DNA from: Fidelibacterota bacterium
Lineage (GTDB): Bacteria; Fidelibacterota; UBA2242
Assembly (NCBI GenBank): GCA_049975265.1
Contig: JBNGDF010000001.1
Coordinates: 1 to 64,000 of the forward strand
Direction of reading: 5' to 3'
Length of the DNA: 64,000 nt
The notes under the pieces are model-generated. The model did not search any database. It saw only the letters and a list, made by a program, of their open reading frames with translations, and was not told where the DNA came from. How positions within the stretch are numbered: the stretch's first letter is position 1; each line of letters opens with the position of its first letter. A program made the translations under genes and the position numbers. Shown in pieces: positions 46,226 through 56,980 of the stretch.

Positions 46226-46741
46226 TTACAAAAGAGACAACAGCTCTCGGGTCCATTTGCGCTCCGCCTGCCAGAGAGACAGCGGACGCGAAAGCATAGC
46301 CCTCTCCAGCATACTGGGATTGTTGATACTGGTCAGCTCCTTGACTTTCGTCTGGATCAGGCGGCTTAACTCAGAGTCGTAGAGCGATAGCGCCTCCTTC
46401 ATTTCGTGCCGGTCCAGCACATCACCGAACCGCAAGCCGGTTTCAAACAGACTGGCTTCCGGTCGCGGTTGCGACAGGACTTTTTTAATCTCCTCCGTAA
46501 AAACCTGGCGCCCCTTAAAGGTCATCGCATAGACCCGCCGACCGGGAAGATTTTCCTGCGGCTTGAAATGACTTTCCAGAAAACCGGCTTTCTCCAGTTT
46601 CTTCAGGGTAGAATAGATCGTGGAAAATCCGATTTTCATGCGATCACGAATGCTTCTATCAACGATTTCCTTCTCAACATGATAGGCGTGGCACGGTTTC
46701 TTTTGAATGATTCCAAGTACCGTTAGTTCGAGTTGCGTCAT
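46226..46741 (-). CDS. PadR family transcriptional regulator
   Basis: LTVLGII, STIYSTLKKLEKAG, RRVYAMTFKG and a C-terminal dimerisation helix. Confidence 0.9.
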   Translation of the reverse strand: MTQLELTVLGIIQKKPCHAYHVEKEIVDRSIRDRMKIGFSTIYSTLKKLEKAGFLESHFKPQENLPGRRVYAMTFKGRQVFTEEIKKVLSQPRPEASLFETGLRFGDVLDRHEMKEALSLYDSELSRLIQTKVKELTSINNPSMLERAMLSRPLSLWQAERKWTRELLSLL

Positions 46742-46842
46742 CTATTCCATTCCAAAAATATTACCTGCGGACAATAGCAAATTTAACGGAATTTCCGGTT
46801 TAATTGCAAAAAAACTTCCGCAAGGCGCGGCTCCTGTTCAAA

Positions 46843-47550
46843 TCATTTGGAATCAATGTCACGGTTCACCCGATATTCACTAAATCCAATCGTAATCCTG
46901 CCGGTTACTGGTTCACCACCCGTCCGTCCATCGAAGTACCCGACAGGAGATTCGATGGACGGACGCTGCATTTCCGGAATCGGTTTTTGCATTCTGAGAT
47001 CGACAATTGTTGTTTCGGGTAACCAGAATTTCTCATACTGTCGATACTGAATGGTTATCATCGTTTCCACTATATCGGGTCTCCTCATCACAATCTTATC
47101 CAGGCTCCAGCGCTGCGGATTGATCCAGAGGGTTGTGGTCATTTTCGATCCCTTTTCAAGCGGCTGAAGCCGCAGAATATAGACACCATCCTCATTCTGA
47201 CCGGGCTGGCTTTCCAGTTCGATGGTTGACTTTTCTGTCAGCTCCTCGATCTGGGATGGGGCAAGCCCGATCCTGGGTAACATGGCGAATCCATCCGTTT
47301 CGACATGGAATTTGTCAGGTTTCGTATAAAAGAGGCGCAGCTCCTTATCCGGCATCCGCAGATTCGGAATATCTGCCGAAACCGTCACCGTCACCGAATA
47401 GTTCTCAATGGATTCAAGGCCCGAACGGACCATTTTCAGAATACCCGCCGGTTCGGAAAAAGGCTGAGCCGGTAAGCCGCTCCAGATACCCGACAGCAGA
47501 CCGATAATGCAAATTTTACAAACAGGTTTGACAAATTTTGGATTCATCAC
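46843..47550 (-). CDS. LolA-like / outer-membrane lipoprotein-sorting fold periplasmic protein
   Basis: Signal peptide; YTKPDKFHVET, TTLWINPQRW, QYEKFWLP...FSEYRVN pattern. Confidence 0.6.
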   Translation of the reverse strand: MMNPKFVKPVCKICIIGLLSGIWSGLPAQPFSEPAGILKMVRSGLESIENYSVTVTVSADIPNLRMPDKELRLFYTKPDKFHVETDGFAMLPRIGLAPSQIEELTEKSTIELESQPGQNEDGVYILRLQPLEKGSKMTTTLWINPQRWSLDKIVMRRPDIVETMITIQYRQYEKFWLPETTIVDLRMQKPIPEMQRPSIESPVGYFDGRTGGEPVTGRITIGFSEYRVNRDIDSK

Positions 47551-48392
47551 GATAAAATATCTTTCCGTATAAACACCAGCATACTCAGTACATAAAAGCC
47601 GGCAATATAGCCCGCCAGACAGAGTACTTTGTGCGCAATCTCGCCCCAGGGAATCGGATCGGCGAAAGGCGCAAAGAATACATCAAAATAGGTTGTAAAC
47701 AGATAGGGACGGATAACATTCAGCGCATCAATCTGAATGACCGACAGAATCAACGCCGCTACCAGTACGGCATAGGTACCGATGATCGGGCCGATTCCAT
47801 TGCCAGCTATGGTGGAAAAGAAAAACGTCAGCGCCGCCACCACCATCTGAACCACCACCGCCAGTCCATAGGCGATTACAAAACGGACAAGCGCCTCATT
47901 CTGCGAGAGAATCAGGATACCTTTATCAAAAACAAACAGGTCTCCGCCCCCAACAATCAATAACCCCGATCCGACGCAGATAAGCCCCAGATAGAATACG
48001 ATGACAACGGTATAGAAAAAAGTGGCGATAAACTTCGAGGTAAGGATTTGGAAACGGGATATCGGGCGGGTCATCAGTATCCGAAACGTCCCCGCTGACG
48101 CCTCACCCGCCATAATATCACCCCCCACCAATACAATGAAAAAGGGAAAGTGAACCCACAATACATTCATCAGATAGTAGGAAACCAACAAGCCGTTCAC
48201 CAGCGTACCGACAAACATAACTGAATCACCAAGCGGCTGCAGCGCCTGATCCTGTACATCAAAGCCGAAACGGTGTACCAGATACATTATTACCGGTACC
48301 AGCAGTGTGATCGTAGCAAAACCGATATATGTCCGCATGCGGTTAAAAATCTTTAAAATTTCGAAATAGGTCGCTTTAATCAGCAGAATCAT
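47547..48392 (-). CDS. ABC-2 type exporter permease
   Basis: AGEASAGTFRILMTRPISR...SKF, FIRKDI; about 6 TM helices. Confidence 0.85.
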   Translation of the reverse strand: MILLIKATYFEILKIFNRMRTYIGFATITLLVPVIMYLVHRFGFDVQDQALQPLGDSVMFVGTLVNGLLVSYYLMNVLWVHFPFFIVLVGGDIMAGEASAGTFRILMTRPISRFQILTSKFIATFFYTVVIVFYLGLICVGSGLLIVGGGDLFVFDKGILILSQNEALVRFVIAYGLAVVVQMVVAALTFFFSTIAGNGIGPIIGTYAVLVAALILSVIQIDALNVIRPYLFTTYFDVFFAPFADPIPWGEIAHKVLCLAGYIAGFYVLSMLVFIRKDILS

Positions 48393-49307
48393 TTATTGTC
48401 CGTGCCGGATTTTCAACAGGGTTAAATAGTAATCTTCCAGCGACGTGCGGGGAACGATCGAGAATATCTTGAAACCGCTACGCACCAGGCATTCCGATAA
48501 AAGCGGACGGCTATCCGCATTCAGGTGGACTTTCAAAACCCCCTCCTCAAGGGCTATGTCGTCGAGCCATTCCTCGTTTTTCAGCAGCCGAAAGGCAGCG
48601 TCGGGACGATCGACCTGTACCTCGGTTACATAAAAATCCGTCTGACCCAGCAGATCCTTCACGGAACCCTGTACCACCATGGAACCATTATCGATAATCG
48701 CCATATGGGAGCAGACCTGCTCAACTTCGTGCAGCAGATGAGATGACAATAAAATGGTCATCTTCCTCTCGTGAGCCAGCAATATGATCAGCTCCCGGAT
48801 TTCATGGATTCCCTCCGGATCAAGCCCGGAAGTCGGTTCATCGAGAATCACCAGTTCCGGATCATGCAAAAGAGCCTGAGCGATTCCCAGCCGCTGCTTC
48901 ATACCATGGGAATAGTTACGTACATCCTCCCGTGCCCGGTCCTGCAGTCCGACGATTTCGAGCACTTCCTGTATCCGGTGGCGGCTTTGGCAGCCGCTCA
49001 GAGCAGCCAAAATATTCAGATTCTTTTCAGCACTCAGATACAGATAAAAGTCTGGTTTCTCCACCAGAGCACCGATGCGGGCATAGATCTTCTGTCCGGA
49101 GCAGCCTACCTTATGCGACAACAGCTCAAAGGTTCCGGCGCTCGGGCGGATCAGATTCAAGAGCATACGGATCGTGGTACTTTTCCCGGCACCATTTGGT
49201 CCCAGGAAACCGAAAATCTGTCCCTTTTCAACCGTCAGGTTCAGGTCCTTCACAGCCCAGCGGTTTCCAAACCGCTTTCCCAAATCATAGGTCTTTATTA
49301 CCATCAT
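48393..49307 (-). CDS. ABC exporter ATP-binding protein (BcrA-like)
   Basis: GPNGAGKST, YSHGMKQRLG, ILDEPTSGLDP, SSHLL. Confidence 0.92.
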   Translation of the reverse strand: MMVIKTYDLGKRFGNRWAVKDLNLTVEKGQIFGFLGPNGAGKSTTIRMLLNLIRPSAGTFELLSHKVGCSGQKIYARIGALVEKPDFYLYLSAEKNLNILAALSGCQSRHRIQEVLEIVGLQDRAREDVRNYSHGMKQRLGIAQALLHDPELVILDEPTSGLDPEGIHEIRELIILLAHERKMTILLSSHLLHEVEQVCSHMAIIDNGSMVVQGSVKDLLGQTDFYVTEVQVDRPDAAFRLLKNEEWLDDIALEEGVLKVHLNADSRPLLSECLVRSGFKIFSIVPRTSLEDYYLTLLKIRHGQ

Positions 49308-49390
49308 TGACCCCAAAATCGGGTGTCAATTTAAGGTTAAAGGAAACAGAATCCAACGGAATGTTTACCGGCTTTTCCTGTCAGGAAGGA

Positions 49391-50932: not shown

Positions 50933-51024
50933 CCTCTTCTCCGTTTTTCTTAAAGTATGTTGGTGAAATATATCGGTTTTTTCACTGAGTTACAAAAGTT
51001 TTTACTGCCATGAAAGCGCCGAAA

Positions 51025-51063
51025 TATATCAATTTGATATAGCCGGTATATGCAATTGATATG
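51025..51063. promoter_or_regulatory. Tandem palindromic protein-binding sites (candidate bEBP enhancer)
   Basis: Perfect palindrome TATATCAA-T-TTGATATA at 51025-51041 and a 13/17 copy TATATGCAATTGATATG at 51047-51063, 22 bp apart. Confidence 0.65.
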
Positions 51064-51128
51064 ACGCAGGACGTAAAAGTCAGAACGGAATATCGATTTC
51101 CCGACGGAGCGGTGGCTCTCTGAACATT

Positions 51129-51145
51129 TTGGCACCGCTTTTGTA
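51129..51145 (+). promoter_or_regulatory. sigma54 (-24/-12)-like promoter
   Basis: TTGGCAC-CGCTT-TTGTA against consensus YTGGCAC-N5-TTGCW; one mismatch at the -12 C. Confidence 0.6.
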
Positions 51146-51180
51146 ATTGATTGAGATGAACGATGAAAGGAGACGAAAAA

Positions 51181-52365
51181 ATGATAATGCACACCATCAA
51201 AAAAATCCTGCACTACCTGATGATCCCCTTAATTACTCTGACTCTGTTCCGCCCTGTAATAGCCGGGAGCCGCGACGAAAATGCCCCTGACTTGGGCGAA
51301 GAGTACCAGCTGGCTGCCAAAGAGATGAAAAGCTGGTTCAGAAAGTGTCACCCTCAACCGCCTTTCCCGGAGGTCGATCGCCCCGGGCTTGGCTATTACA
51401 TCGACAACATCTCTTTTAAAGACGCCTATGAACTGAATTATTCAGGAAATACCGGTGTGCTGGTGAGTGGTAGTCGCAGCTGCAACGATCATCCGGTCTT
51501 GCAACGGGAAGACATCATCATAAAAATTGATGGGATTTCAATAAAACACCGGTCACACTTCGATGACTTTATTGCAGAAAAATCGATCGGCGACTCTGTT
51601 ACCGTTGAATTTTTACGCTACGGTGACACATTTCAGAAAAGACTCTCGGTTGTAAACGAGAACTCTCCCCGGAAATTTGAACAGTCCTGGAGCGATCCGA
51701 CCTCCCGGAAAAGCCGGGGCTTAGGAGGAATCGGATATAAACCGATGTATGTCAACATGGATTTATCCCCGATCAACGATCTGTACGGCACCCTCGGTTT
51801 TAATGAATTATCAGGATTCAACAATCTCCATCACGGATTCGATCTGCAGGGATTGATCGGCAACGGCTACTTCATCGGTGGTTATGGTGTTTGGACAGGA
51901 CAAAAACAGAGCATTCATTACGCCATAGATCAGGCTACATCGGTATACCGGGATATAAAATATACATCCGGCATGGGTGGCATATCGCTGGATAAACGTT
52001 ACCGGCTCGGCGATCGCTGGATGCTTTCTGCCGGCATAATGGTCGGCGGTGGATCCACCCGACTCGAAATCGATCAGTTTGAACAAACGGTGGACTGGCA
52101 CGAGATCGGTCTGGATACTACCGGATCGTATAACGATTACCTGCAGCTACAAAAAAAATACACTCTCTTGCAGCCACGCATTGCCATGATGTACCGGGTC
52201 TTGCCGGTTTTCTGGATTAAAGTTGAAGCCGGTTACATGCTAAGCTATTCCAGGAATGGCTGGCAACAGATTTTGAACGATAATAAACACTCCATAGATG
52301 AGCCGGGAAACGACTCTTCGATGAGCGGTTTCACCGTTAGCATTTCACCCTTTTTCGGGTTTTAA
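51181..52365 (+). CDS. Secreted PDZ domain fused to a predicted outer-membrane beta-barrel (paralog 1)
   Basis: Signal peptide; PDZ (GLGY, GVLV, LQREDIIIKIDG, VTVEFLR); alternating amphipathic strands; terminal ...ISPFFGF. ATG 51181 follows AAAGGAG. Confidence 0.75.
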   Translation: MIMHTIKKILHYLMIPLITLTLFRPVIAGSRDENAPDLGEEYQLAAKEMKSWFRKCHPQPPFPEVDRPGLGYYIDNISFKDAYELNYSGNTGVLVSGSRSCNDHPVLQREDIIIKIDGISIKHRSHFDDFIAEKSIGDSVTVEFLRYGDTFQKRLSVVNENSPRKFEQSWSDPTSRKSRGLGGIGYKPMYVNMDLSPINDLYGTLGFNELSGFNNLHHGFDLQGLIGNGYFIGGYGVWTGQKQSIHYAIDQATSVYRDIKYTSGMGGISLDKRYRLGDRWMLSAGIMVGGGSTRLEIDQFEQTVDWHEIGLDTTGSYNDYLQLQKKYTLLQPRIAMMYRVLPVFWIKVEAGYMLSYSRNGWQQILNDNKHSIDEPGNDSSMSGFTVSISPFFGF

Positions 52366-52394
52366 CATCCTAGATTAGCATGAAAGGAGTTACC

Positions 52395-53669
52395 ATGTCT
52401 GGTTCAAATTCAAAGATACAGCGTCCAAATACATCCATTATCTACATTATCATCTGCTCCTGGTTACTGTTTGTCATTCGGATTTTATCGGCGCAGACTC
52501 TCCCCGCAGAAGAGGTGCAATCTGCAACATTATCGGATGAAATCAGCGCGACTGACACTACCCGGACTGACACACTTGTCATCTTGCCGACCACTGGTCA
52601 AAAGCCCTATCTGGGAATCGTGTTCGGTCGTGACCTCGACTTTGAAAGAGCCGAAAAAGTACATTTTCCCTATAATTATGGCGCCTGCATAGATAACATC
52701 GAGCCGGGTGGACCGGCGGATAAAGCCGGGCTGAAGGAGGGTGACATTATTACCCGCTTCGGCAAGGAAAAAATCTGGTACAACAATTATCTTGTCCGGG
52801 TGGTTGAAAAATATCAGCCGGGAACGGATGTCCCTGTTGTTCTTTATCGTGACGGCAACGCAATGACAACCACCATCACTCTGGACAGTGCCCCGGAATC
52901 CGTCGAGATAAAAATCGGCGAATCGGAAGAATCCACGAAAACAGATTATTCCGGTTCGAAAAAAACCAGAATCATCAAAAGATCGGATGCCGGGATTTTT
53001 TCCTGTGATTTCAGCTATTTTGTTCCCGACAATCTTGCGTTCTACACCCAGTTCTTACAAGCTCAACTCGGCTACTCTGCGGTCACAGATAACAGGCAGA
53101 TCAATGATAAAACCTACACCGGTTTAAATATGACGGGCTTTCACTTTCGTCCGGATAGCGACGACGGCGACCTGAGCTGGGGTTTTGTCTGGGCAAACAA
53201 CAGCTGGAACCGTCACAAACCGGTAACCTTCGCCGGAGCCGATCGTGACAGTTATCTGATATACAGCATGAACTACTGGGGTGTAACATTGGATCAGCAA
53301 ATTACGATCTTCCGGCGATTATACTTACGTGCCGGCGTTCTGGCTGGCAGCCTGACCAGCGGTCTTGCGTTGCACCAGACCGAACCGCTGACACAATGGG
53401 CGGAGATCGGGGCTCGTTTCACCGATAGCAACGAGAGTTATCTGCAAGTGGAAAAGAAATATTTTCTGATTCAACCCAACGTTTCTGTCTTTATTCCCAT
53501 CCTTGGTGACCTCGGTCTGCAGGCAAAACTTGGCTACTGTTACGGAATTCCCCGGACAGACGGCTGGAAGGTCCGCACACCGAGTGGTGGCAAAGATGTC
53601 CTCAATTCGCCGAATACATCGATCGGGGGATACACCCTCTCCATTGGACCAGCTCTCTTGATAAAGTAA
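52395..53669 (+). CDS. Secreted PDZ domain fused to a predicted outer-membrane beta-barrel (paralog 2)
   Basis: PYLGI, GGPADKAGLKEGDII PDZ motif; C-terminal strands align by eye with paralog 1 (KKYFLIQPNV vs KKYTLLQPRI). ATG 52395 follows AAAGGAG. Confidence 0.78.
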   Translation: MSGSNSKIQRPNTSIIYIIICSWLLFVIRILSAQTLPAEEVQSATLSDEISATDTTRTDTLVILPTTGQKPYLGIVFGRDLDFERAEKVHFPYNYGACIDNIEPGGPADKAGLKEGDIITRFGKEKIWYNNYLVRVVEKYQPGTDVPVVLYRDGNAMTTTITLDSAPESVEIKIGESEESTKTDYSGSKKTRIIKRSDAGIFSCDFSYFVPDNLAFYTQFLQAQLGYSAVTDNRQINDKTYTGLNMTGFHFRPDSDDGDLSWGFVWANNSWNRHKPVTFAGADRDSYLIYSMNYWGVTLDQQITIFRRLYLRAGVLAGSLTSGLALHQTEPLTQWAEIGARFTDSNESYLQVEKKYFLIQPNVSVFIPILGDLGLQAKLGYCYGIPRTDGWKVRTPSGGKDVLNSPNTSIGGYTLSIGPALLIK

Positions 53670-53670
53670 A

Positions 53671-53750
53671 TCTGGAAAAGGAAAGGCGTTCTCTGATCCA
53701 TTATTTCATTTTACACGTCTGGCAGACAATCATGCCCTTTCTTTTCCGGA
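53671..53750 (+). repeat. Imperfect 18-nt inverted repeat (RNA stem) just after the PDZ gene pair
   Basis: TCTGGAAAAGGAAAGGCG (53671-53688) pairs with TGCCCTTTCTTTTCCGGA (53733-53750) at 17 of 18 positions when G-U is allowed. Confidence 0.5.
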
Positions 53751-53787
53751 AAGGTCTGATTTTTCAGTTAAAACAGCTCGAAAGTAA

Positions 53788-53816
53788 TTGAAAATAGGGC
53801 TGGATTAGCGTATTTT
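53788..53816 (+). promoter_or_regulatory. sigma70-type promoter of the DUF4390 / two-component operon
   Basis: TTGAAA, 17 nt spacer, TATTTT; ATG 11 nt downstream. Confidence 0.55.
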
Positions 53817-53827
53817 GTATCAACATC

Positions 53828-54400
53828 ATGATCGAAACACTCACAGATCGACTCATTGCTACGATCATCACAATTGGCTCGCTTTTGTTTCCTTTTATTG
53901 ACGGACTGGCCCCTGCATTTACCGATGTCAGCGTTAATCTGATTGACAATTCACTGGCGCTGTCACTGAATCTGACCAACTGTTATTCCGACGAGTTCGA
54001 TCGAATTCTCACTTCGGGACAGCCGGTGACAATCCGTTTTCTGGCAGAGCTGTATGACGGTCGTACCCGGCAAGTGGTTCTGAAAAGAGACTTTGAGCAC
54101 ACTATCCGTTATAATCCTCTGAACAAACAGTATGCAATCTACCTTTCCGAAAGAGATGAGCGGCGAATTTGCGAAACCCTGGACGATGCCCACGCCTGCT
54201 TCAGTACTTTGTACCGGGTTACACTCCTCTCCCCCGAAAATCTGGAAAAGGACCGTGATTACTTTTTCCGGATTTCAGCGGCTCTCGATCCGATTACCTT
54301 TATCGGTGAAAAATCCCCCTTTGATCTGATGCTTTACTGGAACAATAAGAAGCCAAAGATTGACACCGAAAACTTTAATTCGGCCATATTTTACCGTTGA
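53828..54400 (+). CDS. DUF4390-like periplasmic protein
   Basis: N-terminal hydrophobic segment, LTSGQPVTIRF, IRYNPLNKQY; position before an NtrY/NtrX-like pair is typical of this family. Confidence 0.7.
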   Translation: MIETLTDRLIATIITIGSLLFPFIDGLAPAFTDVSVNLIDNSLALSLNLTNCYSDEFDRILTSGQPVTIRFLAELYDGRTRQVVLKRDFEHTIRYNPLNKQYAIYLSERDERRICETLDDAHACFSTLYRVTLLSPENLEKDRDYFFRISAALDPITFIGEKSPFDLMLYWNNKKPKIDTENFNSAIFYR

Positions 54401-54407
54401 TACAATT

Positions 54408-55613
54408 ATGAAAAAACCAATTCCATCATTCCGCCTGCAGATCTTTCTTCTGTTTATCGCTCTGTTACTCATCTCCGTAACGTTTACCCGGTCCTTTTTT
54501 ATTAAAAGCAACCATTCTTTTTTACAGCGTCTCTCCGAACAGAATATTCTCACAAAAATTGAAACACTCTACCATGACTACAGAGCCGTTCTTCCCCAGG
54601 AGCAGGCAGAGTCGTTTAAGCAGGATATCGAAGAACTGATGTTGGGACAAAAGGCGATCGATCTGTCAACTGAGATTTATCAGCAACAGGTCGACGCCTA
54701 TTCCCGTTATATCTTCATCTTCATTGTGTTATCGGTGTTCCTCATTTTTGTTCTGTCAATTAATCTGATTACCCGACCGCTCCGCCGTTTACAAGCCGCC
54801 ACCCAGGAACTGATGGCGGGCAATATCCGGATTCATGTCAAAGAAAATCCCTTCTCACCGATTAATACCCTGATCGTCTCATTTAACCGGATGGTTTTGG
54901 AACTGGACCGGCAGCGCAAAATCGCCATAGAGGCTGAGAAGCAGATGGTTTGGCGGGAGATCGCCCGGGTAATGGCTCACGAAATCAAAAATCCACTTAC
55001 ACCCATAAAACTGAGCGTTGAGCACCTAGAAATGAAATGTCTTACAGATTCTGCAATCAGCCCCAAATTTCTTGGTGACAGTCTCTCTGTAATCAAAGAG
55101 GAGGTCGTGAACCTGCAAGCCCTCGTAGATCGGTTTCGGGGATTCGCCACCCTGCCTGAAGCAAAGCCCGAACACTATTCAATCAAGGCACAAATCGAGG
55201 AAATCATCGCGTCTTATCAACAAAAACACCGGATTGAATTAATCGGCGAAAATGAGGTTCCTCCGATCCGGGCTGATAAGATGCAGATTAAACAGGCGCT
55301 GGTCAATCTGATTCAAAACGCGCTGCAGGCAGCCGATACCCCGTCCGTTATTGTCACGATAAAAATCGAAACCGCTGATAACTGGCTGATGATTAGCATC
55401 CATGATAACGGTCCCGGAATTCCCACCGAAAACCTGGAGAAGATTTTTGAACCCTACTTCACCACCCGTCGTAAGGGCACCGGACTCGGGTTACCTATTG
55501 TTAAAAGAATTGTCGAAAATCACAGGGGTACCATTTCCATAGAAAGCCGAATCAACGCGGGTACCACAGTTTTCATCCGGCTGCCGATCCAAGTAAATAC
55601 GGAGGGATGCTAA
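54408..55613 (+). CDS. Membrane HAMP sensor histidine kinase (NtrY-like)
   Basis: 2 TM helices, HAMP, WREIARVMAHEIKNPLTPI, NLIQNA, DNGPG, GTGLGL. Confidence 0.9.
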   Translation: MKKPIPSFRLQIFLLFIALLLISVTFTRSFFIKSNHSFLQRLSEQNILTKIETLYHDYRAVLPQEQAESFKQDIEELMLGQKAIDLSTEIYQQQVDAYSRYIFIFIVLSVFLIFVLSINLITRPLRRLQAATQELMAGNIRIHVKENPFSPINTLIVSFNRMVLELDRQRKIAIEAEKQMVWREIARVMAHEIKNPLTPIKLSVEHLEMKCLTDSAISPKFLGDSLSVIKEEVVNLQALVDRFRGFATLPEAKPEHYSIKAQIEEIIASYQQKHRIELIGENEVPPIRADKMQIKQALVNLIQNALQAADTPSVIVTIKIETADNWLMISIHDNGPGIPTENLEKIFEPYFTTRRKGTGLGLPIVKRIVENHRGTISIESRINAGTTVFIRLPIQVNTEGC

Positions 55614-56980
55614 TGAACATATTGGTCGTTGATGACGAAAAAAATATCCGCCAAACACTTGGCGCTATTTTGTCCGACGAAGGTCATCATGTATCCGTCG
55701 CCGCATCCGGTGAAGAAGGATTGCGCTGTCTTGGCGAGAATCTTTTTGATCTTGTTTTTCTTGATGTAAAGCTCCCCAGAATCAGTGGCATTGATATCCT
55801 GAAACAGATCAAAAAGGAGTGGAGCTCCACCGAAGTACTAATGATTTCCGGCGACAGCGATATAAATACCGCCGTAACAGCGGTAAAGATAGGCGCTCAC
55901 GACTTTATGGAAAAGCCACTGTCGCTCCCTAAAATTTTAATTGCCGTCCGGAACATTGCCGAGAAAAGGAAACTTTTGCAGAAGTGCATTATCGGTGACG
56001 AGGTTACCAGCTCCCGCTACCGGATCGTTGGCGAATCAAAACAGATCCAAGATATCCGGGAAGTGATTCAGCGGGTTTCCAAAACCGATGCAAAGGTTCT
56101 GATCACCGGTGAAAGCGGCACCGGAAAAGAGCTTGTCGCTTATCATATCCACAAACAGAGCGCCAGGTCTGATCAACCCTTTATTACCTTCAACAGCGCC
56201 GCCATTCCCAATGAACTGGTGGAGAGTGAACTGTTCGGTCACGAAAAAGGCGCATTTACCGGAGCCGACCACCAAAAACCGGGCAAACTCGAACGCGCCA
56301 ATCACGGAACCCTTTTTCTGGACGAGATCGCTGATATGAACCTCGCCGCCCAAGCCAAAATTCTGCGCGTTCTGGAAGAGGGTACATTCGAACGTGTCGG
56401 CGGCACCCGCACCATTGATATCGATGTCCGGATTTTAGCCGCCACCAACCGGGACATCAAGGCACTGATTCGGAACGGTGAATTCCGGGAGGACCTTTTT
56501 TACCGGCTCAATGTTGTCCCGATCCATTTATCGCCACTTCGGGAACGTCCCGCGGATATCCCCGTTTTAATCAGGCATTATCTGCACGCCTATTCTGTCG
56601 AACTGGCAACACCCCAAAAGAGTTTTACCGAATCAGCAATTCGTCGACTGACGGACTATCCTTTTCCCGGCAATATTCGTGAATTGAAAAACTTTATCGA
56701 ACGTATGTATATCCTCTCCGACAAATCCACACTCGGTAAAGATGATGTCCGCCTCCATCTGGGTTCTCACGACAGCCCGGCGCGCGATTTCCTCGAAGAC
56801 ATCCTGATGAAAAACAACTTTAGCGATGCAAAAAGGGCGTTTGAGAAATACTATCTTACAAAAAAACTGGAAGATACTGGCTGGAATATTTCCCGCCTAG
56901 CCGGCGATATCGGTATCCGACAACCCAACCTGTCGCGCAAAATTAAGTCTCTTGGAATCGACGTGCCGAGTAAAAGTTAA
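55613..56980 (+). CDS. sigma54-dependent response regulator (NtrX/NtrC-like: REC - AAA+ - Fis HTH)
   Basis: VVDDE, phospho-Asp FLDV, GESGTGKE, intact GAFTGA, LFLDEI, FREDLFYRL, C-terminal HTH. Confidence 0.93.
   Translation: MNILVVDDEKNIRQTLGAILSDEGHHVSVAASGEEGLRCLGENLFDLVFLDVKLPRISGIDILKQIKKEWSSTEVLMISGDSDINTAVTAVKIGAHDFMEKPLSLPKILIAVRNIAEKRKLLQKCIIGDEVTSSRYRIVGESKQIQDIREVIQRVSKTDAKVLITGESGTGKELVAYHIHKQSARSDQPFITFNSAAIPNELVESELFGHEKGAFTGADHQKPGKLERANHGTLFLDEIADMNLAAQAKILRVLEEGTFERVGGTRTIDIDVRILAATNRDIKALIRNGEFREDLFYRLNVVPIHLSPLRERPADIPVLIRHYLHAYSVELATPQKSFTESAIRRLTDYPFPGNIRELKNFIERMYILSDKSTLGKDDVRLHLGSHDSPARDFLEDILMKNNFSDAKRAFEKYYLTKKLEDTGWNISRLAGDIGIRQPNLSRKIKSLGIDVPSKS

Follow-up and report, generated by a model that had tools for sequence, protein, structure and literature searches.

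The described two-component system nearest in logic to the locus analyzed here is the Desulfovibrio pair DVU2931/DVU2934 (Dde_3000/Dde_3003; annotated NtrY/NtrX). According to the accessible parts of the source articles, DVU2934 carries a GAFTGA motif and has lpxC as its sole target, with a palindrome ∼100 bp upstream of the sigma54 promoter; a mutant of the kinase derepresses lpxC, and a small hypothetical gene, Dde_2999, precedes the kinase gene (PMC3333781, PMC4045070, and PMC4641369). In the PlrP-PlrS-PlrR system of Bordetella, the DUF4390 protein PlrP is proposed to restrain the phosphatase activity of the kinase PlrS via its PDC domain; the available portion of that report leaves the function and contact of DUF4390 open, describes a near-strict linkage of DUF4390 to the kinase in its genome set, and does not report DUF4390 for the alphaproteobacterial NtrYX class (PMC13001219). 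The latter systems (Rhodobacter, Brucella, and Caulobacter) tie a regulator with REC, AAA+, and helix-turn-helix (HTH) domains to envelope genes (accessible parts of PMC7240162). In the PSP and Lia systems (PspF-sigma54 and LiaFSR), envelope genes are controlled by a sigma54 activator or by a two-component system with an accessory protein. Here, we analyzed positions 51025 to 56980, plus flanks, of a 64,000-nucleotide stretch of DNA (the window; positions 1 to 64,000 of contig JBNGDF010000001.1, assembly GCA_049975265.1) from a Fidelibacterota bacterium whose homologs carry the label Candidatus Marinimicrobia. A palindrome pair and a sigma54 promoter are followed there by two PDZ-barrel genes (A and B), a DUF4390 gene, a sensor kinase gene, and the gene of a GAFTGA activator, which together form a candidate three-component envelope-stress circuit. 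Comparison with 41 close-kin genomes, 301 genomes of the phylum, and 80 loci from a genome scan, most of them Cloacimonadota, revealed that the enhancer and the activator occur, disappear, and change together.

Each described system shares part of this arrangement. Like DVU2934, the regulator of the locus is a GAFTGA response regulator with one envelope target; judged by the accessible text of those papers, the Desulfovibrio system differs in its target (lpxC), its binding site (GTGTAAAAAACACACA, GTGTAAA-type), and its larger, multisensor kinase. As in the published description of Bordetella PlrPSR, so far as it was available, a DUF4390 gene (PF14334) lies directly 5′ of the gene for a HEIKN-type kinase, followed by a regulator. 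Unlike PlrS, the kinase of the locus has no PDC or PAS domain detectable by Pfam, and, unlike PlrR, which has no AAA+ domain, the regulator is a full sigma54 activator; furthermore, the window locus has no rsmB upstream, as found in betaproteobacterial NtrYX. The kinase had been labeled NtrY-like from the sequence, and it does share HEIKN and HAMP with NtrY/PlrS; without PDC and PAS, the NtrY domain set is missing, and the label was dropped. The companion label, an NtrX-like regulator, held for the intact GAFTGA, Walker, and HTH motifs and failed for kinship with NtrX: the regulator scores 418.7 bits against the NF051870 cutoff of 600. In addition, two NtrC-family chains outscore chain 5m7n, which we take to be Brucella NtrX (348 versus 314 bits). 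Its site also differs from the GCA-n9-TGC bound by alphaproteobacterial NtrX, which is itself reported to have no GAFTGA (bioRxiv 10.1101/2023.06.06.543975).

The outputs set the locus further apart. Unlike in the PSP and Lia systems, the core output is a PDZ-barrel and no PspA target was seen; the words "PDZ" and "barrel" are absent from the main text of a PSP/Lia survey (PMC11237479). Unlike HtrA and DegS, A and B carry a PDZ domain with no protease domain. The main text of PMC12316311 does not mention Marinimicrobia or Cloacimonadota, and the single mention of DUF4390 in PMC5192318 concerns Burkholderia. No description of the module or of PDZ-barrel fusions was found in a literature that excluded most subscription journals and key supplements, which could list the locus, and the parts of the DUF4390 literature within the same reach contain nothing on Marinimicrobia or Cloacimonadota. 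The output protein family and its binding site thus appear not to have been described before.

The enhancer comprises a distal palindrome at 51025 to 51041 (TATATCAATTTGATATA), which is a perfect 8-1-8 inverted repeat and the predicted activator site, and a proximal palindrome with three mismatches at 51047 to 51063, 22 bp (two turns) beyond it and centered 77 bp upstream of the G of the −24 element. The consensus is ATATCA-N3-TGATAT. The −24/−12 promoter, TGGCAC-N5-TTGT, lies at 51130 to 51144 (+), with a predicted transcription start site near 51156; including it, the genome has 10 intergenic sigma54-like sites. The original prediction of two phased palindromes and a −24/−12-like promoter was therefore borne out, and rpoN, whose presence it had proposed to check, was found in the genome. 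At ≤3 mismatches, the window contains two matches to the palindrome versus 0.16 expected, and 2 of 100 shuffles reach two, although this test is partly circular because the search pattern was derived from the first site. A scoring matrix built from relatives only, without the window genome, ranks the two sites first (26.9 bits) and second (19.1 bits) in the genome; the pair totals 46.0 bits, compared with 18.4 for the genome's next pair.

Chance AT-rich palindromes beside a chance −24/−12 match would be compatible with one result: the −24/−12 pattern alone occurs in the window at chance level (4 matches versus 4.07 expected). The credibility of the element derives from conservation in relatives, not from match frequency. 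All 16 close relatives with an A ortholog have two sites 20 to 23 bp apart plus a sigma54 element, degenerate in one of them (G039), with the center of the proximal site 74 to 88 bp upstream of the −24 G. Across the phylum, the strict site-plus-promoter pattern occurs in 31/301 genomes and its reversed control in 0/301. Conservation of the pattern and of its spacing refutes the coincidence, to which we assign a negligible probability. Control of the divergent gene by the palindromes was likewise considered and rejected: this gene, which carries Mg_chelatase/ChlI domains and which we presume to be comM, is absent at several of the 16 relatives' loci, and the enhancer stays where it is replaced or absent.

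The layout is conserved as well. Within the 41 close-kin genomes, 38 contain a match to A, only 17 of them a strong one (E < 1e-37; window genome included); the weaker matches in the remaining genomes are barrel-only or PDZ-only, and a DUF4390 profile made from 13 of the 17 genomes matched exactly those 17. A further 40 loci from other families were picked by hand for family spread. The PDZ-barrel, mostly as a single copy, lies upstream of the DUF4390-kinase-regulator cluster in 34/40, DUF4390 is an orphan in 4/40, and the barrel is absent from the locus in 2/40. Of these 34, none of which was used for the matrix, 32 have a sigma54 element with a site of ≥12 bits ahead of it; one of the other two, G113, was unscored at the edge of its locus and reached 13.8 bits in a separate scan. 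The expectation that motif and synteny would be kept in relatives was thus confirmed, and it extends to other Marinimicrobia families.

PF14334 was detected in 87 of the 301 phylum genomes, the barrel gene in 93, and the activator ortholog in 85, with both of the latter in 82, the barrel only in 11, the activator only in 3, and neither in 205. In this tally, kin are not independent, long queries can miss, and one match (G199) is a barrel without PDZ. In two genomes (G177 and G236), the barrel and the kinase cluster are on different contigs with other neighbors; it is the barrel that carries the site and promoter, and a regulator ortholog occurs elsewhere in the genome. At L094 and L148 (G177), the DUF4390-kinase pair, the regulator, and the PDZ-barrel are at three separate places, and all are retained. 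A prediction set beforehand was that complete genomes without the activator would also be without the enhancer/sigma54 site. It held in 4/4 (G104, G139, G107, and G180, representing two genera), in which the barrel is present, the regulator and DUF4390 are absent, and rpoN is kept.

Outside Marinimicrobia, one PDZ-barrel clade is labeled Cloacimonadota. The genome scan retained 80 of 116 loci, of which 72 are labeled Cloacimonadota or Cloacimonetes, 1 Neomarinimicrobiota, and 1 Spirochaetia, the last being nearly identical to a Cloacimonadota copy. The kinase cluster is adjacent in 27, the site and promoter are present without an adjacent cluster in 29, neither element is present in 15, 5 are unclear, and 4 (L153, L161, L218, and L229) were set aside. 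With these groups fixed beforehand, we searched for the regulator in 50 of the 80 (the 29, 15, and 5 loci plus one control). An activator ortholog (54 to 61% identity) was found for 28/29 enhancer-bearing loci without an adjacent cluster, 0/15 enhancer-less loci, and 4/5 unclear loci; L213, the exception among the last, has neither promoter element. When five ortholog-less genomes were checked at a lower threshold, no match exceeded 40%. Of the 16 activator-less Cloacimonadota genomes, 15 keep rpoN, and a TTGAC sigma70 box lies ≤110 bp from the start in 12/16 of them versus 2/29 of the enhancer-bearing loci. In two of the activator-less loci (L213 and L230), the PDZ-barrel is inside an ABC-transporter operon and is followed by the gene of an S49 (SppA-like) peptidase, a neighbor that possibly hints at a role in protein quality control.

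The activator itself (55613 to 56980, +) has a REC domain (D51), an AAA+ domain with GAFTGA at residues 213 to 218, and an HTH; the Walker A, GAFTGA, Walker B, and HTH motifs are intact, and GAFTGA is invariant in 10 orthologs apart from the preceding K/R. Together with rpoN, the −24/−12 promoter, and the upstream palindromes, these features place it among the bacterial enhancer-binding proteins (bEBPs). Nearly all orthologs retain its recognition helix, xQ[PS]NLSRK, which none of the genome's other 10 bEBP-like proteins has. Among Cloacimonadota loci with an adjacent cluster, 14 of the 24 scored reach 12 bits. In all seven subthreshold loci with the regulator in view, V or I replaces the helix Q, and in all seven the best sites are TTATCA-N3-T(G/T/A)ATAA, in pairs 31 bp apart. 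Q-type activators accompany ATATCA sites in 6/8 cases, the others being one hybrid and one mispicked site that is A-type in a separate scan. A change of Q to V/I in the helix that tracks a change of A to T in the site fits the expectation for direct binding.

An alternative is that the kinase cluster is a passenger and that the palindromes bind another factor: either a repressor, which might act on the comM-like gene, or another of the genome's bEBP-like proteins, of which there are 10 besides the activator. The presence of 11 bEBP-like proteins in the genome leaves room for such a factor, and two genomes (G307 and G220, discussed below) have the site without an activator ortholog. However, the co-loss in two phyla and the helix/site covariation count against it, the site stays at the barrel in split loci, and it is conserved where the divergent gene differs; we consider this alternative very improbable. 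Co-loss and covariation instead point to the adjacent activator as the binder of the palindromes, and, by these comparative data, it very likely both binds them and drives the promoter. They also support the earlier proposal that the two-component system would induce the PDZ genes.

The DUF4390 (PlrP-family) protein encoded at 53828 to 54400 (+) is the predicted third component (190 amino acids, N-terminal hydrophobic helix, 63.1 bits to PF14334). The kinase (54408 to 55613, +; 401 amino acids) has two transmembrane helices, a periplasmic segment of ∼75 amino acids, and a HAMP domain running directly into HisKA (H191, HEIKN), followed by HATPase; the periplasmic segment measures 60 to 81 amino acids (median, 73) in 67 orthologs. 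The two genes adjoin in 36 of the 40 further loci, and in the other 4 (L093, L111, L114, and L125, family f7) an orphan second DUF4390 copy has no adjacent kinase. A model of DUF4390 with a dimer of kinase residues 1 to 128 scored 0.54, compared with 0.00 for the best of three controls, and runs agree in ≥93% of contacts with a partner pLDDT of ≥81. The mark applied to such models is reached by 116/157 solved and 2/215 mismatched pairs; both mismatches score ≤0.60, a range that holds only 18 of the solved pairs, and the model therefore counts as weak support for a contact outside the cytoplasm. No solved structure that could explain it by memory matched the DUF4390 profile. We consider an action of DUF4390 on the kinase likely. 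No plasmid match for DUF4390 was found. The kinase is interrupted by a run of N in G010 and by a frameshift in G019, and the regulator gene of G030 also carries a frameshift (L029, L030, and L034); these may be assembly errors.

The output genes had been described from the sequence as two paralogs combining PDZ with a β-strand-rich region, and homology and modeling agree. PDZ-barrel A (51181 to 52365, +; 394 amino acids) has a likely signal peptide (judged by eye), an N-terminal helix, an HtrA-type PDZ, a predicted 8-stranded barrel, and a C-terminal Phe. PDZ-barrel B (52395 to 53669, +; 424 amino acids) has a like architecture with no C-terminal aromatic residue and shares 31% identity with A over the C-terminal 132 amino acids (E = 2e-17). 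The PDZ of B is above the Pfam cutoff (44.3 bits), and that of A is just below it (26.9 versus 27). An AlphaFold model of A from 128 rows (pLDDT, 89.8; pTM, 0.70) contains the N-terminal helix, the PDZ, and eight barrel strands. Foldseek matched it to HtrA PDZ domains (E = 1.3e-6; root mean square deviation [rmsd], 2.2 Å) and to Ail/OmpA/OmpX. By VIA-align, the barrel resembles a Dot/Icm porin (Z, 15.7; rmsd, 4.3; 189 aligned), NspA (15.3; 3.2; 152), OprF (15.2; 2.5; 133), and OmpW (14.7; 3.8; 161), and the PDZ resembles HtrA PDZ at Z of 12 to 13.5; no structure listed by either program spans both domains. Eight modeled strands, Z of 14 to 16, and an aromatic end together fit the 8-stranded OmpA/OmpX/OmpW fold. 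In the family, the C terminus is mostly WFGF, with F last in 88/128 rows and Y in 9/128 and no such residue in B paralogs, and the P-x-L-G-hydrophobic PDZ loop is conserved (G42 in 120/128 rows). No protease domain was found in A or B, HtrA/Deg matches being confined to the PDZ and far below the cutoffs. Both ends of an even-stranded barrel face the periplasm; from this topology, the fold, and the family's C termini, we infer that the barrels are in the outer membrane, presumably assembled by BAM, with the PDZ in the periplasm.

The best 150 profile matches contain ∼70 full-length PDZ-barrel clusters at 50% identity, and an Atlas search with the A barrel returned clusters without a name, in one of which 18% of the members carry OMP_b-brl. 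Barrel-only homologs, often in tandem, are present in most relatives. One PDZ-less homolog of 310 amino acids lies within an ABC/efflux-like operon at G000:C5:93193-94125 (−), and in family f15 (L140, L141, L142, and L143) a long acidic N-terminal region replaces the PDZ of barrel homologs that have no enhancer.

Additional genes behind the motif indicate a likely cue. The enhancer and sigma54 site also precede genes for Toastrack DUF4097 (G052 and G042) and LiaF-like (G042) proteins, and a second copy in G149 precedes a small open reading frame and a PspC gene. In G039 and several Cloacimonadota, the barrel gene is followed by inserted LiaF or DUF4097 genes, and family f15 has a cluster of ECF sigma, DUF4097, and LiaF-like genes immediately upstream. 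PspC, LiaF, and Toastrack domains are partners of PSP/Lia envelope-stress systems, according to the parts of the survey at hand (PMC11237479). These extra targets therefore suggest envelope stress, which we consider a reasonably likely cue. The link to stress rests on other genomes because, in the window genome, the enhancer does not precede the PspC, DUF4097, and LiaF-like genes. Together with the score of the next site pair (18.4 versus 46.0 bits), this led us to reject a large regulon in the window genome.

The same wiring might instead respond to outer-membrane homeostasis or metabolism (lipid, redox, or nitrogen), with the barrel a structural, adhesive, or small-solute protein of the OmpA/OmpW type and the PDZ a tether. 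Consistent with this, the best folds are OprF, NspA, OmpA, and OmpW, the barrel gene takes a sigma70-type promoter upon loss of the activator, and the closest characterized analog, DVU2934, controls the single gene lpxC (accessible parts of PMC3333781 and PMC4045070). Yet the extra targets assigned to a family are all PspC, LiaF, or Toastrack, with one gene outside this assignment, an efflux-adaptor-like gene preceded by a single enhancer site in G291, and no nitrogen or respiratory gene lies behind the motif in the inspected loci. We regard a homeostatic or metabolic cue as improbable.

In the mechanism that we propose for the envelope-stress circuit, the DUF4390 protein would tune the neighboring kinase, which would phosphorylate the GAFTGA activator; the activator would bind the paired ATATCA-N3-TGATAT sites and switch on the sigma54 promoter for A and B. 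We infer direct binding and phosphotransfer. In the most speculative step, which would take place at the inner face of the outer membrane, the protease-less PDZ would capture hydrophobic C termini that unfolded envelope proteins expose, and the PDZ-barrel would act as a membrane-anchored holder or adaptor. This quality-control role for the PDZ is tentative, somewhat short of an even chance. The circuit as a whole, from DUF4390, kinase, and activator to the PDZ-barrels, is on balance the reading that we favor, with modest confidence. The original prediction had it self-contained: this is true of the window genome, whereas in relatives the parts can be scattered and PspC and Toastrack genes can belong to the regulon.

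With the same wiring, the barrel might lie in the signal path, its periplasmic PDZ holding or releasing a relay such as DUF4390 depending on how outer-membrane assembly is proceeding. The result would be a trans-envelope feedback loop, for which RcsF/OmpA and NlpE/Cpx offer a comparison. Such a role would suit a regulon that is usually a single operon, the rarity of an activator without a barrel (3/85), and the conserved PDZ loop. It sits poorly with the persistence of the barrel without the circuit and with the C termini of DUF4390, which end in 13 different residues among 67 proteins, unlike typical PDZ ligands; for the same reason, the DUF4390 C terminus was judged an unlikely canonical PDZ ligand. 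We hold this placement of the barrel to be slightly more remote than a homeostatic or metabolic cue.

Several observations weigh against the envelope-stress circuit. One genome with the full cluster, G049, has no recognizable site (2.1 bits). Two have an enhancer and promoter with no activator ortholog: G307, with a best match of 40%, and G220, in which the contig ends 164 bp past the barrel gene and the absence is possibly an assembly gap. One Cloacimonadota locus, L221, shows neither an ATATCA- nor a TTATCA-type site. The losses noted above represent few independent events, namely three on the Cloacimonadota gene tree (FastTree), one of which (L213/L230) concerns an operon-internal barrel gene, plus two Marinimicrobia genera; the helix/site switch may reflect one to three events. 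Pfam detects DUF4390 in only 7/50 Cloacimonadota genomes, by weak matches, five of which sit just upstream of the regulator. The PDZ of gene A is degenerate in this genus, and, as noted above, the stress-related genes of the window genome have no enhancer. Finally, about 20 genomes keep the barrel gene in the absence of the circuit, so it also has a role under other promoters.

If the proposed circuit is correct, the DUF4390 three-component system gains a predicted output, binding site, and specificity residue from natural gains, losses, and covariation. The DUF4390-kinase pair would also offer a minimal test of DUF4390 action, since the kinase has no PDC, the proposed point of action of PlrP, and the circuit is small enough to be rebuilt in E. 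coli. For two phyla that are mostly uncultured, a first envelope-stress regulon would thereby be predicted. A more far-reaching version, in which DUF4390 gates a PDC-less kinase and the PDZ-barrel, as a new class of outer membrane protein with a protease-free HtrA-type PDZ in the periplasm, reads C-terminal signals of unassembled outer membrane proteins from the side of that membrane and possibly feeds back on the kinase, as an undescribed envelope-stress response of Marinimicrobia and Cloacimonadota, appears doubtful at present.

The remaining features of the locus concern its transcription units. From ribosome-binding sites and orthologs, the likely starts were corrected to 51181 (A), 52395 (B), 54408 (kinase), and 55613 (regulator). 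A hairpin followed by a T-rich run (53728 to 53761, +) is the likely terminator of the A-B operon, and hairpins are present here in several relatives. The separate sigma70-type promoter previously noted before the DUF4390 gene corresponds to a sigma70-like site very near the start codon (53788 to 53816, +), which would serve DUF4390, kinase, and regulator; the same scan found 13 such sites versus 8.4 expected, and this one is weak on its own. In the window (53788 to 53830), ∼11 bp separate the end of the −10-like box from the DUF4390 start, and neither here nor in relatives can a ribosome-binding site be seen before that start, so the transcript may have almost no leader. In 13 loci, DUF4390 has neither an enhancer nor a sigma54 site upstream, and autoregulation of the kinase cluster was rejected on this basis. 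The divergent comM-like gene has a sigma70-like promoter (TTGTAA-17-TATATT; 50967 to 50995, −) that is probably outside the circuit. Downstream of comM, at 46226 to 49316 (−), genes for a PadR regulator, an unassigned protein of LolA-like appearance, and an ABC-2 exporter pair are conserved in the genus.

Between the enhancer and the promoter, a short CG(A/T)CG element (51102 to 51109, +) is kept in most of the window's order and mostly absent in other families; as a guess, it is a DNA-bending site. A similar word, CGTCGA, is repeated downstream of a second kinase-bEBP pair at G000:C26:29259-34388; a sigma54-like site and a small secreted protein whose DxDGDG repeats are EF-hand-like also follow this pair, which makes up a local circuit parallel to the present one. 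Another sigma54-like site, TGGCATAACATTTGT, lies at G000:C2:83239 (+), ∼60 to 90 bp upstream of a gene that we take from its sequence to be dnaK.

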